DNA of 32,000 nt from assembly GCA_016933055.1 (NCBI GenBank), contig JAFGBS010000009.1, forward strand, positions 510,001-542,000, given 5' to 3'. This document shows, piece by piece, positions 1,578 through 13,382 of the stretch. Numbering within the stretch: the first letter of the stretch is position 1; each line of letters starts with the position of its first letter. The translations under genes were made by a program, and so were the position numbers. The notes beneath the pieces were generated by a model. It saw nothing but the letters and a program-made list of their open reading frames with translations, did not search any database and was not told where the DNA came from. This stretch comes from Promethearchaeota archaeon. GTDB lineage: Archaea > Asgardarchaeota > Lokiarchaeia > Sigyniarchaeales > Promethearchaeaceae.

Positions 1578-3329
1578 TTGAGTAAAAAAGAACACATTGC
1601 CTTTAAATGCTCCGAGTGCTCAGAATTATTTCCAAAAGAGTTAGTAGACGAGATTATGAAAGGTAAAACTGTTTTGTGCGAAAAATGTGGATTCCCTTTT
1701 AAATCTGAGTTCACTAAAAAGGATTATAAACAAATGGGTTCTCCTCCTATCCAAGCTCCAATTCTTAAACGAACTCAACAACTTGCGTATAGTGGACCAA
1801 AACAATCTCAAAATTCCAAAAAATATCGATATGAGCCTACTCTTAAGAAAAATGAGAAAAAATTTAAACATGGAGTCAAAATTCATTCTTCAGGGTTAAA
1901 GGAGAAAATTCCGGTTGAAGATCTTGAGAATCTCAAAAAATCGATTCGTATAATGAATGATATCAACGGTTCTCCATTGATTATAATCATAGGTATATTG
2001 ATTCTAGCCAGTAGTATACCCCGTGTGATTTCAACATTACAGACTGATCTGTTTCCTGGTATCATGCAAATTGTTGTAAATAGTTATAGATTCATCTTAA
2101 TTATCCTATTATGGAGTATCAATTATCGAATTGTTATTAAACCCATTAAAGAACAGTCCTACACAAATTTAGGAATAGATGCAATGCTCATCGGATTAAT
2201 TGGACTCCCATTATACGGTTTAGGCACATTTTTCCTATTTGAGGGACTCTTCATTTTATTATATGAAATCTTTCTTCGTATTAATAACTTGATCGATATG
2301 GGAAAAACGGATAAACTAAGTGAAGAAATTTTTGCAGCTAATTTCATGGAATCTACGATAAAAGTGATAAATAACTTCTTGGTAAAGGGTACAATATTTC
2401 TATTATTTTATAGTATAATTCCTGTTCTCAAAGAAGTACGCGATTACACCCTTCCTTCGGCAGAATTTATTAGTGTAATCGTGTTTTATGGAACTTTCCT
2501 AATAATAGCTATTGCATTCACATTCTATTTAGGTAATAAATTTGTGCCAAAAATAAGAAACACTGCGTATCAGAAAATTGATGAAGAAATTTTTGTTAGA
2601 TGCATAATATTTAGTGCATTTAGTTTAATATATGCGGGGGTAGGGTCATTAGGATTAGTTATTTGTATCTTACTGTTCATTTATAGGGGTCTTTACAAGG
2701 ATATTAAAAAAAAACTACCCTCGATGCATTATGAGAAACCAAAACCCCCAATTGCGGTAAAAGAGCCTTCTCGAACAGAATCGACCACAAAACCAGAATC
2801 AATTTCATTTGTTCTGGAAGCACAAAAAGATATAGTGCCTAAGGAAATTTTTCCCACTCCTCCCCCCAAAGAAGATAGAAAACCGTTACAAGAAATACCA
2901 GTTATTCATGTCGAGGATAAACATGCACGAGAACAGTTAATTTCGTCTTTAAGGAAAACTGAGAAAGAAGTAATGGAAAAACCTCCGAGCAAAACTCCTG
3001 AATTAAATCGTGGAAATATCAAAGAATACATGGGTAGAGTATTTACTGTTCTCACCGCCGATATGCGTGAACGTTTGTTGAAATTGGAAATTCCGGATGA
3101 GCAAAAATGGGATGTGGTTAGAGAATTTGCCAATCTGAAGGAACAGCAACAACAAAAATATATTGAAGAATTAGAAAATGTTAATCGAGTCTTGTCGGAA
3201 GAACTTATAAAACGAGTTCAGAAGATGAATCTCCCGATAAAAGAGACCCAATCCATTATTAGACAATTAGAGATAATGGATCCAAAAGAACAAGTCCAAT
3301 TCGTGGAGTTTTTGGAACATACTCAATGA
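1578..3329 (+). CDS. Membrane protein with N-terminal Zn-ribbon, about 8 TM segments, Pro-rich linker and two C-terminal helical repeats
   Basis: CSEC...CEKC at N-terminus; hydrophobic stretches at about aa 130-370; GAGGTGA at 1565-1571 lies 6 nt before the TTG start. Confidence 0.75.
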   Translation: MSKKEHIAFKCSECSELFPKELVDEIMKGKTVLCEKCGFPFKSEFTKKDYKQMGSPPIQAPILKRTQQLAYSGPKQSQNSKKYRYEPTLKKNEKKFKHGVKIHSSGLKEKIPVEDLENLKKSIRIMNDINGSPLIIIIGILILASSIPRVISTLQTDLFPGIMQIVVNSYRFILIILLWSINYRIVIKPIKEQSYTNLGIDAMLIGLIGLPLYGLGTFFLFEGLFILLYEIFLRINNLIDMGKTDKLSEEIFAANFMESTIKVINNFLVKGTIFLLFYSIIPVLKEVRDYTLPSAEFISVIVFYGTFLIIAIAFTFYLGNKFVPKIRNTAYQKIDEEIFVRCIIFSAFSLIYAGVGSLGLVICILLFIYRGLYKDIKKKLPSMHYEKPKPPIAVKEPSRTESTTKPESISFVLEAQKDIVPKEIFPTPPPKEDRKPLQEIPVIHVEDKHAREQLISSLRKTEKEVMEKPPSKTPELNRGNIKEYMGRVFTVLTADMRERLLKLEIPDEQKWDVVREFANLKEQQQQKYIEELENVNRVLSEELIKRVQKMNLPIKETQSIIRQLEIMDPKEQVQFVEFLEHTQ

Positions 3330-10645: not shown

Positions 10646-10900
10646 TCAGTTTCCACCTGCTTGAGTTGCCATAACGGTGATTATGTCTTTTTTTGGATGG
10701 ATACCGACTTTATTGAACTTAATATTGTCCGGGAGAACCTTTCCTTTATAGATGAACTGGATTGCTAGGATAGGATTCAATTTATATTCTTGTTGAACTG
10801 CTTTCTTAATTTCTCCAATTGGTTTCTCAGGATCGAGTTCTATCATTTTCATAGCCTGATCAGGTGGAACACCTGTAAGCCGAAATCGGAATTGTGCCAT
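10646..10900 (-). CDS. Ubiquitin-like protein (eukaryote-type beta-grasp) ending in GG-N
   Basis: IGEIKKAVQQEY, IQFIYKGKVLPD (cf. ubiquitin RLIFAGKQLED), C-terminal TQAGGN-stop. Confidence 0.85.
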   Translation of the reverse strand: MAQFRFRLTGVPPDQAMKMIELDPEKPIGEIKKAVQQEYKLNPILAIQFIYKGKVLPDNIKFNKVGIHPKKDIITVMATQAGGN

Positions 10901-10996: not shown

Positions 10997-11269
10997 TCAT
11001 TGATTAGTCAAATATTGGGTGGTGATAAGCGTGCTGGTCTTATTTACTCCTTCGATTTTACGCATTCTCATTACTAATCTAGTTAATTCTGGGAGAGAAT
11101 TTACCTTTATCTTAACTAAAATGTCCCACTCCCCATATATCAAATAGGTTTCAAGTACTTCTCTCATTTCCTTAAGTTCCCGTATTAACTGTTCCGTTTG
11201 ATCCGAGGATGTAAGCAACAATAAAAATGCAACCACATCCTCATCATGCTTTATGTTCGGTTGTTCCAT
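10997..11269 (-). CDS. Stand-alone Lrp/AsnC ligand-binding (RAM) domain protein
   Basis: EVLETYLIYGEWDILVKIKV...LTRLV...KIEGVNKTSTLI; no N-terminal HTH. GGTGA precedes the ATG at 11269, preferred over the track start 11281. Confidence 0.85.
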   Translation of the reverse strand: MEQPNIKHDEDVVAFLLLLTSSDQTEQLIRELKEMREVLETYLIYGEWDILVKIKVNSLPELTRLVMRMRKIEGVNKTSTLITTQYLTNQ

Positions 11270-11330: not shown

Positions 11331-11822
11331 TTAATCTGACGGTATTACGATCATGAATTGGCAATGGGATGTTCTTCCTTGAAGTCTGCATTCTAATTCT
11401 TGAGCAAAACACCGTTTATTCGAAATATGTTCTACTATTCCTGCAAATACCCCAGCTTCAAAGGAACAAAATGAATTATCTGATGGAATCGAAGTAGGGA
11501 GATCTTTACAAGAATTACATTCAGCTAAATGAAACGTAATATGCCCCACATCTTTTTCATCAATTACGATTTGTCCTAAATGGTATTGTTTCGTAACTTC
11601 TATGAATTTAGCAATAATCTGATCAATATCTGTAATAGGACCGTTCCTAATTTCAATTTTTGACCCTAGTTCATGTCCTACATAATAAAATATAGCAGAT
11701 AGTTGTTCCCCCAAAGCAAATAATGCTCCTACCTTCAAATTACCAATATCTTCCCCTTGTAATAGGCGCATTTTCATTTTTCGCAACATTTCTTCCAGTA
11801 ATTTTCTGTCCATTCTATTCAC
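11331..11822 (-). CDS. V4R-domain protein
   Basis: FHLAECNSC...FCSFEAGVFAGIVE...AQELECRLQGRTSHCQF matches the V4R Cys pattern. Confidence 0.85.
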   Translation of the reverse strand: MNRMDRKLLEEMLRKMKMRLLQGEDIGNLKVGALFALGEQLSAIFYYVGHELGSKIEIRNGPITDIDQIIAKFIEVTKQYHLGQIVIDEKDVGHITFHLAECNSCKDLPTSIPSDNSFCSFEAGVFAGIVEHISNKRCFAQELECRLQGRTSHCQFMIVIPSD

Positions 11823-11825
11823 CTT

Positions 11826-12134
11826 TTAAGGTTCTTCTTCTTCTTCTAAGCTTACCGAGGAAAGGAATCCTTGAAGAATAGTATCAACAATATCTTGTTC
11901 ATCCATAATATGAGTAAGGCGTTTATTTCCTACAATGATTGAAGGAACACTAAGAATATTATTCTTCCTAGCAAGTTCCATTTCATCAGTGAGAGAAACA
12001 TCGATTTTTTGTATAAATAATTGGTTCCCAAATAGGGAAAGATTAATTCTAGCTAGCATCCTCTCCACATTTTTACATGGCGCGCAATATTTCGATGTAT
12101 AAAACTGGATCACTGGATACAATACTTCAATCAC
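11826..12134 (-). CDS. Thioredoxin-family protein
   Basis: FYTSKYCAPCK (CAPC) and ILSVPSIIV cis-Pro loop. Confidence 0.88.
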   Translation of the reverse strand: MIEVLYPVIQFYTSKYCAPCKNVERMLARINLSLFGNQLFIQKIDVSLTDEMELARKNNILSVPSIIVGNKRLTHIMDEQDIVDTILQGFLSSVSLEEEEEP

Positions 12135-12144
12135 TAATATTCTT

Positions 12145-12738
12145 CTATAATTTTTTCGTCGAGATTTTTAAGGGATTGTTATCTTGAGAACGTTCGATTT
12201 CTAGATTTACGAGATGATGAATAATAGCATCAAATGCCTCATGCACATGTTCGCCAGTTTTTGCAGAAGTTTTATAGAACTTGTAGAATTTATCGATTTC
12301 AATTTTCTCTTTAATTTTGGAATCGTCAATCCTGGTTTGATCATCAATCAAATCTTGTTTATTGCCGAATAATATGGTAGGAATCACTCCTACATGACGG
12401 CGTAATTCATTATACCACGTCATTACATTTTCAAGTGTATCATCTCGGGTCAGATCAAACACAACAATTGCTCCACGGGCGCCATGGTAGAATTTGGGAC
12501 GCATAAATTCAAAATCATCTTGACCCGCAATATCCCAAAAAAGCAAGCGGACTCGAATTTCCTCATTATCGCCTAAAATTTTCTGATATCGACTGAATTG
12601 GGCACCCACCGTTTTAATGTATTCTTGATTAAAGGAACCTGCAGTATATTTTTTGATCAGACTAGTTTTTCCTACACTTGCATCGCCTATTACCACGATT
12701 TTATGGACATAGTCCTTATCAAAACCTCTGGAACTCAT
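12145..12738 (-). CDS. Rab-like small GTPase (Ras superfamily)
   Basis: G1 GDASVGKT, G2 TVG, G3 WDIAGQ, G4 NKQD, G5 SAK; FYHGARGAIVVFDLT; no C-terminal Cys. Confidence 0.93.
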   Translation of the reverse strand: MSSRGFDKDYVHKIVVIGDASVGKTSLIKKYTAGSFNQEYIKTVGAQFSRYQKILGDNEEIRVRLLFWDIAGQDDFEFMRPKFYHGARGAIVVFDLTRDDTLENVMTWYNELRRHVGVIPTILFGNKQDLIDDQTRIDDSKIKEKIEIDKFYKFYKTSAKTGEHVHEAFDAIIHHLVNLEIERSQDNNPLKISTKKL

Positions 12739-12893: not shown

Positions 12894-13382
12894 TTAAGTT
12901 TTAAATTTCGTGAAGGATCTCCAAATCCGCCAGAATATAAAATAAACAATGAAGAATAGGATAGCAGCGACACTAGAAGTATAAATTCCAATAAATGGAT
13001 CCCAAACTATGCCTATCAACCCACCTGTTACATATCCAATTACGTATGCGTATCCCCGTGTTCGTTTCATATTTGAGAATATTATAGCAGGGATTAGAAA
13101 TAGGAATGGTACAATAAAGAAACTCCAGATTCCAATGGTTGAATCCCCTGCCTGAACGGCACTTGGGTCCCAAAAACAACTGTCACAACTCTCATAACCT
13201 GTACAGAAATACATATACCAAGAAATCCATACGTTAAATACGGAAAGTACTATCCCAATAAGTATATATCCCCACCAATCATAATGATACGTGGGTTTCA
13301 TTTTCTTGTCTTGTTCACGGGGATTAATTTCTGAATCTGAGTGGTCGGAATCATTTGGGGGGGGAAAAGGGTTTTCACTCAT
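12894..13382 (-). CDS. Small membrane protein (3-4 TM) with a Cys-containing loop
   Basis: Hydrophobic helices; loop CTGYESCDSCFWDP; acidic/Pro-rich N-terminus. Confidence 0.65.
   Translation of the reverse strand: MSENPFPPPNDSDHSDSEINPREQDKKMKPTYHYDWWGYILIGIVLSVFNVWISWYMYFCTGYESCDSCFWDPSAVQAGDSTIGIWSFFIVPFLFLIPAIIFSNMKRTRGYAYVIGYVTGGLIGIVWDPFIGIYTSSVAAILFFIVYFIFWRIWRSFTKFKT

Follow-up and report, generated by a model that had tools for sequence, protein, structure and literature searches.

The 32,000-nucleotide (nt) stretch analysed here, called the window in what follows (positions 510,001 to 542,000 of contig JAFGBS010000009.1 from a Promethearchaeota archaeon), carries at 11331-12738 three co-oriented open reading frames (ORFs) on the minus strand, which according to Pfam searches and direct reading encode a small GTPase, a thioredoxin-fold protein and a V4R-domain protein. 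These genes form a conserved unit, as they are co-oriented in the order GTPase-thioredoxin-V4R in 75 of 80 species genomes, and this unit is real and very probably functional, its three products most likely working together. The activity that we tentatively propose for it, with slightly more doubt than belief, is that of a V4R thiol/zinc or ligand sensor, reset by the thioredoxin and controlling a dedicated GTPase. The step between thioredoxin and V4R protein is supported by the precedent of the redox regulator MsvR and by gene fusions, while the step from V4R protein to GTPase we infer from gene neighbourhood.

Gene order and its conservation

The GTPase and thioredoxin genes are separated by 10 nt, as had been stated in the first-pass annotation (a reading of the letters without database searches), which also placed three co-oriented genes at these coordinates, in agreement with the ORFs and Pfam domains. 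Its 3-nt gap between the thioredoxin and V4R genes holds for a GTG start only, the ATG at 11813 leaving 12 nt. Since V4R orthologues begin with MDR or MNR, and a GGTG Shine-Dalgarno-like site stands 7 nt before this ATG, the V4R protein is likely to have 160 amino acids (aa) and the gap to be 12 nt. Both intergenic gaps are too short for a promoter.

The conservation of the unit was followed with the V4R protein as anchor in a search of 61 relatives, 55 of which have a V4R orthologue. Among 301 sampled genomes of the phylum, V4R matches are strong (E < 1e-30) in families f1 and f3 of one order only and weak elsewhere, and the relatives search added family f2 of the same order (E 5e-37); the range of the orthologue is thus one Lokiarchaeial order, both cultured species included. 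The host genome of the window (3.76 Mb, 91% complete) belongs to a family that also contains Promethearchaeum syntrophicum MK-D1, Lokiarchaeum ossiferum and Harpocratesius repetitus, and its closest related record is the metagenome-assembled genome (MAG) AMARA_1. In total 192 loci were collected, including 80 metagenome contigs and a partial overlap between two genome sets; they are non-independent samples, every carrier belonging to the one order.

The first-pass annotation had staked its account in part on the order being kept in relatives, and of the 80 species genomes only five do not show it in full, the locus being truncated by a contig end in four and the GTPase gene inverted in one. 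Over the 192 loci, the order is GTPase-thioredoxin-V4R (GTV) in 159, GTPase-V4R-thioredoxin (GVT) in 3 and GTV with an inverted GTPase gene (gTV) in 3; contig ends truncate 26 loci, and one is an exception. The intergenic gaps are mostly of 3-110 nt. GVT is the order of family f2, where the three genes remain adjacent and co-oriented, and the GTPase gene is inverted relative to the other two in one genus (L005/L038, L118). The sole exception (L156:1-2500) has a V4R gene without preceding thioredoxin and GTPase genes, phage-like genes, including one for a clamp-loader-like ATPase, extending to within 28 nt of the V4R start; an assembly chimera or an insertion could explain it. Genome G038 was considered as another exception and set aside: behind its 51%-identical GTPase gene come a deacetylase-like gene and the contig end, but switch II of this GTPase differs and it is probably a paralogue.

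The flanking genes differ by family: in f1 a RAM-domain gene follows V4R, while in f3 the trio comes after a divergent CinA-like gene and before a second GTPase gene and a TBP-like gene. Together with the permutation in f2 without dispersal of the genes, this turnover argues for selection on the neighbourhood. An adjacency inherited by chance and devoid of functional meaning could appeal to the restriction of all carriers to one order and to the non-independence of the loci, yet it is very unlikely, as the trio has been retained while its flanks were replaced, has been reordered in f2 without being scattered, and persists between families whose proteins are only 45-55% identical.

Outside these three families, four f4 genomes (63-88% complete) have a distant thioredoxin (33-34% identity), but with the queries used neither a V4R orthologue nor a GTPase above 43% identity was found in them. 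In f4 a Rab-like GTPase gene is preceded by one for a cysteine-less 184-aa protein (G016, L196:7794-8926 and 2912-3199; same layout in L197). This protein has no Pfam match, and its weak language-model leads are V4R and DUF2378 (0.89, below the level of trust). A distant CAPC thioredoxin of the same type is encoded 4.6 kb away, and behind it stand two paralogous genes, each of about 285 aa. This layout could be a diverged form of the GTPase-thioredoxin-V4R unit.

The V4R protein and its thioredoxin

The V4R protein scores above the Pfam V4R cut-off (Table 1), and it has a conserved set of four cysteines and one glutamate (C116, C135, E139, C142 and C151, encoded at 11468-11361), which do not vary among 20 aligned orthologues and occur in 185 of the 192 loci. 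Of the V4R cysteine set given in the first-pass annotation, the first pair, CNSC, is not conserved and reads H..I in 138 of the 192 loci. The best NCBIfam match is MsvR (NF053755; E 8.4e-13, 48.5 bits against a cut-off of 220), limited to profile positions 120-236, which are its V4R part; there is no helix-turn-helix in the protein, and thus not the winged helix-turn-helix of MsvR. In a search of 1.84 billion representatives, a tight cluster of V4R orthologues is followed by a gap and then by mostly MsvR-like V4R proteins. By sequence, the protein is MsvR-type.

Its AlphaFold2 (AF2) model (predicted local distance difference test score, pLDDT, 86.5) has the V4R/Bet3 fold, with VIA Z scores of 12.5-13.8 both for the TRAPP chains (TRAPPC3, TRAPPC6, Bet3 and Thor-TRAPPC3) and for PoxR, MopR and MJ1460, a tie by which the fold search does not separate it from TRAPPC3. 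The root-mean-square deviation (rmsd) is 2.7-3.2 Å for TRAPP chains and 3.5-3.9 Å for PoxR/MopR. At the sequence level, Pfam TRAPP_Bet3 (PF04051) does not match the protein at E 0.01, and the profile of V4R orthologues searched against the Protein Data Bank (PDB) finds MJ1460 (E 0.007) and no TRAPP chain at E up to 10.

What the conserved residues may do is suggested by solved relatives. Thor-TRAPPC3 and PoxR bind a structural zinc ion via residues of the conserved-cysteine region of V4R (PMC10933270), so that the site here is, by analogy, most likely a zinc-thiolate site, either structural or acting as a redox switch as in MsvR. Zinc binding by such relatives would also suit a metal-handling unit, in which the thioredoxin CxxC, a type of motif that can bind metal, and the V4R cysteine site pass or buffer zinc or a different thiophilic metal, the GTPase being a nucleotide-driven helper. 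This idea is very unlikely: no transporter or metalloenzyme gene is conserved beside the trio, and the known metallochaperone GTPases are of the G3E/SIMIBI class, not of the Ras superfamily.

Two side observations concern the V4R gene. Five f3 genomes of two genera (G050, G028, G039, G309 and G312; loci L203:262-795, L204:260-790, L205, L206 and L207) have a V4R gene interrupted by an extra 39 nt (30 nt in G039), which keep the reading frame, open with a TAA stop and lie inside the most conserved helix, the remainder of the gene being intact. The insert contains a hairpin, at which the two genera differ by two double compensatory changes, and looks like a degenerate tandem duplicate of the segment that follows it. 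It may be an intron, a site of read-through, the mark of a split gene or a lesion that is tolerated. In addition, a scan of metagenomes for kin of P0158, a cysteine-poor protein, returned none closer than 52% identity.

The thioredoxin passes the Pfam model narrowly (Table 1) and scores far under the NCBIfam thioredoxin equivalog cut-off (27.8 against 96.8), which indicates a divergent member of the family. The host genome holds 39 Ras-family, 5 thioredoxin and 1 V4R matches, and as the weakest of the five this thioredoxin is not the housekeeping copy. The CAPC motif reported in the first-pass annotation is indeed present, at residues 17-20, with a cis-proline motif (SVPS) at 62-65. CxxC and cis-proline are kept in every locus covering them, the canonical WCGPC being replaced by [YFH]C[AGES]PC, and a C-terminal helix, DxILxGFxSSV, is also conserved. 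The AF2 model (pLDDT 80.7) has the order beta-alpha-beta-alpha-beta-beta-alpha, and its top Foldseek matches are genuine thioredoxins (TM 0.6-0.7, rmsd about 2 Å).

An indication that both proteins belong together comes from other Asgard lineages. Four protein clusters among the remoter V4R representatives (P0185, P0202, P0208 and P0253; 480-513 aa) combine an N-terminal thioredoxin fold containing CxxC with two V4R domains behind it; their source MAGs carry the labels Hodarchaeota, Heimdallarchaeota, Asgard group or Lokiarchaeota. In hhalign comparisons, the thioredoxin profile matches residues 10-96 of P0202 (probability 97%, E 6e-11) with its C-terminal helix included, and the V4R profile matches residues 365-495 (probability 96%) with the four cysteines and the glutamate in register. 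That the same type of thioredoxin is fused to V4R domains argues that the two act on each other directly. Such fusions are annotated only as 'V4R domain-containing protein' or hypothetical and are uncharacterised. Three further candidates, P0166, P0169 and P0178, were discarded, as they look like chimeric or mis-called fragments, and a search with the thioredoxin profile for longer fused forms gave a single irrelevant match of 199 aa.

A precedent for such an interaction exists in MsvR. The V4R cysteines of MaMsvR are C206, C232 and C240, along with C225, and the C206A substitution abolishes redox control of DNA binding (PMC3729527). According to PMC7278568, where Sheehan et al. 2015 is cited, MsvR that has been oxidised is made active again by NADPH together with thioredoxin reductase and a thioredoxin from M. 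acetivorans.

The GTPase and the possible working of the unit

The GTPase has all its motifs (G1 GDASVGKT, the switch-I threonine in YIKTVGAQF, G3 WDIAGQ, G4 NKQD and G5 SAK), including the catalytic glutamine of DxxGQ, and G1-G5 are conserved across 28 orthologues. Its closest solved relatives are Rab23, Thor-Rab (7EZB), Rab8A and Rab27A (E 1e-27 to 1e-30), a range that becomes E 1e-25 to 1e-30 when Rab11 and Rab1 are included. The copy in the window has no cysteine at all, hence no prenylation site or anchor; no cysteine is conserved among the orthologues, and none has one at the C-terminus, so that the protein is Rab-like and not a true Rab. Intact G motifs and the absence of prenylation had already been claimed from the sequence, and both stand. 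An apparent fusion of GTPase and thioredoxin in L013 (G003) proved to be an alignment artefact, an in-frame stop dividing the two genes.

A second Rab-like GTPase gene, found on either strand, accompanies the trio, immediately upstream of it in f1 and downstream of it in f3 (L036:1270-1779, L043:994-1500, L045:3692-4183 and others). Its products are 49-69% identical between f1 and f3 and 34-40% identical to the main GTPase. In the genome of the window, the orthologue (58% identity) lies on another contig (G000:C15:131340-131822; L194:1474-2001).

How could these proteins work together? In the mechanism that we tentatively prefer, the V4R protein, probably a dimer with an internal pocket and the Cys/Glu site that binds zinc in solved relatives, would be the sensor. 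Oxidation of its thiolates, or a small hydrophobic ligand, would alter its shape, the adjacent thioredoxin would restore the reduced form, and the V4R protein, according to its state, would determine the nucleotide state of the neighbouring GTPase or its output; this GTPase has itself no cysteine for redox sensing. The first-pass annotation had proposed a redox- or ligand-gated GTPase unit of this kind. Its thioredoxin-V4R part has gained from the MsvR-type V4R, the cysteine spacing and the fusions, while the gating of the GTPase has not advanced beyond the neighbourhood of the genes, and the dependence between thioredoxin and V4R cysteines is not strict.

Several observations weigh against this mechanism. 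The GTPase is tied to the other two proteins by neighbourhood only: a fusion of the GTPase with either partner was not found, no GTPase domain occurs among 117 V4R representatives, and the fusion locus of G062 (L198:4333-5874) has no Ras-like GTPase gene in the 4.3 kb upstream of it or in the 2.8 kb that separate it from the contig end downstream, which makes the GTPase look like an addition within the Lokiarchaeial order. Moreover, some V4R copies have lost part of the site, C116 alone being retained in L112 (G007) and L121, serine standing at C116 and C142 in L140 and L144, and C135 being absent from the f2 copies; in all of them CxxC and cis-proline of the neighbouring thioredoxin are intact, which suggests that this thioredoxin does not strictly depend on a full V4R site. 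The conserved cysteines may merely hold a structural zinc ion, as they do in Thor-TRAPPC3 and PoxR (PMC10933270), and there is no thioredoxin reductase gene within the unit.

Part of this evidence would equally suit a self-contained pair, in which thioredoxin and V4R protein form a redox or ligand sensor, or an enzyme-like couple, with another target, and the GTPase gene merely shares their promoter in this order. The absence of a GTPase neighbour at the one fusion locus, the lack of cysteines in the GTPase and the inversion of its gene in one genus all point in this direction. We consider such a pair unlikely all the same, given that the GTPase gene adjoins the pair in some 165 loci where the upstream sequence is long enough to judge, in three families and despite the permutation of the other two genes, and that all three genes are jointly missing from f4, with the queries used. 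Apart from this question, the G062 contig has a TrmB-family regulator gene about 650 nt upstream of the fusion, on the same strand.

The kinship of V4R with the Bet3/TRAPPC3 subunits of TRAPP, a Rab exchange factor, was left out of the first-pass annotation and leads to another explanation, in which the V4R/Bet3-fold protein would be a scaffold, a part of an exchange factor or an effector for the Rab-like GTPase, redox would not be central, and the thioredoxin-fold protein would be an adaptor or a stabiliser of the zinc site. V4R has been proposed as the ancestor of Bet3 (PMC2253512). The fold match to TRAPPC6, Bet3 and Thor-TRAPPC3 equals or betters that to PoxR/MopR, the adjacent GTPase is Rab-like, a second, orthologous GTPase gene is linked to the locus in f1 and f3, and V4R copies that lose cysteines still adjoin the GTPase. 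At the level of sequence, however, the protein is of V4R/MsvR type, with the negative TRAPP_Bet3 and PDB results given above. In the TRAPP-Ypt1 structures most contacts with the Rab are made by longin subunits, and the unit has no longin-domain gene. This explanation would also leave unexplained the strict conservation of CxxC in the thioredoxin, as well as the thioredoxin-V4R fusions that lack a GTPase neighbour, and it seems rather improbable.

A combination of both ideas, in which the V4R/Bet3-fold protein would be a primitive thiol-switched exchange factor or regulator of the Rab-like GTPase, with the thioredoxin as redox input, and a prokaryotic precursor of the control of Rabs by TRAPP, is distinctly unlikely. 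If true, it would tie the origin of trafficking-GTPase regulation to oxygen or sulfur sensing in the archaeal ancestor.

Neighbouring features and comparison with known systems

The trio and the features next to it are listed in Table 1.

Table 1. Coordinates of the three-gene unit and of adjacent features in the window
Feature	Position	Strand	Basis and remarks
Rab-like small GTPase, 197 aa	12145..12738	-	Pfam Ras E 9e-41; first gene of unit; soluble, no lipidation motif
Divergent, dedicated thioredoxin-fold protein, 102 aa	11826..12134	-	Pfam Thioredoxin (PF00085) 26.5 bits, cut-off 23.5; CAPC at 12086-12075
Stand-alone V4R (Bet3/H-NOX-fold) protein, 160 aa	11331..11813	-	Pfam V4R (PF02830) 36.9 bits, cut-off 31; ATG at 11813, alternative start GTG at 11822
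Stand-alone RAM (Lrp/AsnC ligand-binding) domain gene without helix-turn-helix	10997..11269	-	Pfam AsnC_trans_reg E 4.6e-15; 61 nt downstream of V4R
Inverted repeat, 10 bp perfect, AGTACCCAAA / TTTGGGTACT, 11-nt loop	12847..12877	-	Read from sequence

The RAM-domain gene, whose likely start is the ATG at 11269 with GGTGA in front, lies 3' of V4R on the same strand in all f1 loci reaching that far, including those of MK-D1, L. ossiferum and Harpocratesius, and may belong to the transcript as a fourth gene specific to the family. Next to it, a ubiquitin-like gene (10646-10900, minus strand; Pfam ubiquitin E 8.7e-8) whose product ends in GGN is conserved beside the RAM-domain gene in the same genus only. 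On the other side, the inverted repeat lies 17 nt past the stop of an upstream gene for a 162-aa membrane protein (12894-13382) and possibly marks the transcript boundary before the GTPase gene, although it was not called by the terminator scan; counts in the promoter and terminator scan were at chance level. A TTTCGGA/TCCGAAA repeat is also found about 90-115 nt before the GTPase start.

The interest of the unit lies mainly in the regulation of Asgard GTPases. Asgard genomes have dozens of Ras-family GTPases, almost none of which can be matched to a regulator (PMC10933270; bioRxiv 10.1101/2020.10.19.343400), because their genes rarely lie in operons; in MK-D1 they are generally not in operons with RB, longin or TRAPPC3 genes (PMC10933270). 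The present unit gives one of these GTPases two fixed partners, which are candidate and probably redox-sensitive regulators. By coupling a V4R protein, a prokaryotic relative of the Bet3 subunits of TRAPP, to a Rab-like GTPase, it bears on the origin of Rab regulation whichever explanation holds. As both cultured Lokiarchaeia, MK-D1 (DSAG12_02514-02516) and Lokiarchaeum ossiferum, have the unit, its proteins are already open to binding, redox and nucleotide assays. The MK-D1 orthologues, whose genes stand side by side, are WP_147663613.1 for the GTPase (annotated as a Rab family GTPase), WP_147663615.1 for the thioredoxin (thioredoxin family) and WP_147663616.1 for the V4R protein. The first-pass remark that the arrangement seemed uncharacterised agrees with the literature searched (by accession, by locus tag and by V4R, GTPase and thioredoxin together), where the unit is not described, most subscription journals lying outside its coverage.

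One of the closest known systems is MsvR, which resembles the thioredoxin-V4R part of the unit. It is the best NCBIfam match of this V4R protein and likewise of the nearest outgroups, and the cysteine spacing is the same, C206-x18-C225-x6-C232-x7-C240 in MaMsvR against C116-x18-C135-x6-C142-x8-C151 here. In MsvR, redox sensing is the task of the V4R thiols, and thioredoxin brings the protein back to its reduced, active form (PMC3729527; PMC7278568). Unlike MsvR, which has an N-terminal winged helix-turn-helix and acts on DNA, the protein described here consists of V4R only, its thioredoxin is encoded next door, and its presumed output is a GTPase and not a promoter. The Asgard fusions (for example MFX0162007.1, MEA2069753.1 and MCY3411712.1) share with the unit its subtype of thioredoxin, down to the C-terminal ..SS[VI] helix, and a V4R domain with four cysteines and the glutamate, but join these in a single chain with two V4R domains, and at the one locus analysed no GTPase gene adjoins them.

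The TRAPP core (Bet3/TRAPPC3, TRAPPC5, TRAPPC6 and Thor-TRAPPC3; PDB 7YH3 and 7YH2), which activates Rab GTPases, has the same fold over 120-130 residues at the Z scores given above, and Thor-TRAPPC3 binds zinc via four cysteines in the same region (Tran et al. 2024, PMC10933270). It differs from the V4R protein in that no TRAPP_Bet3 match is seen in the sequence of the latter and that no longin partners are encoded nearby. The same authors solved Thor-Rab along with Thor-TRAPPC3 and modelled two MK-D1 V4R/TRAPPC3-like proteins (PMC10933270); WP_147663616.1 is a third MK-D1 protein, distinct from WP_147663132.1 and WP_147661794.1.

Finally, the layout of a small Ras-superfamily GTPase in a conserved operon with its presumed regulators recalls the Asgard operon of a LAMTOR1-like protein, a Rab-like GTPase and a DENN protein, as well as bacterial MglA-MglB. 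Liu et al. list ESCRT and LAMTOR1-Rab-DENN operons and not this unit, V4R, TRAPP and thioredoxin being unmentioned (bioRxiv 10.1101/2020.10.19.343400). In those systems the partners of the GTPase have Roadblock and DENN folds, whereas here they are a thioredoxin and a V4R protein.

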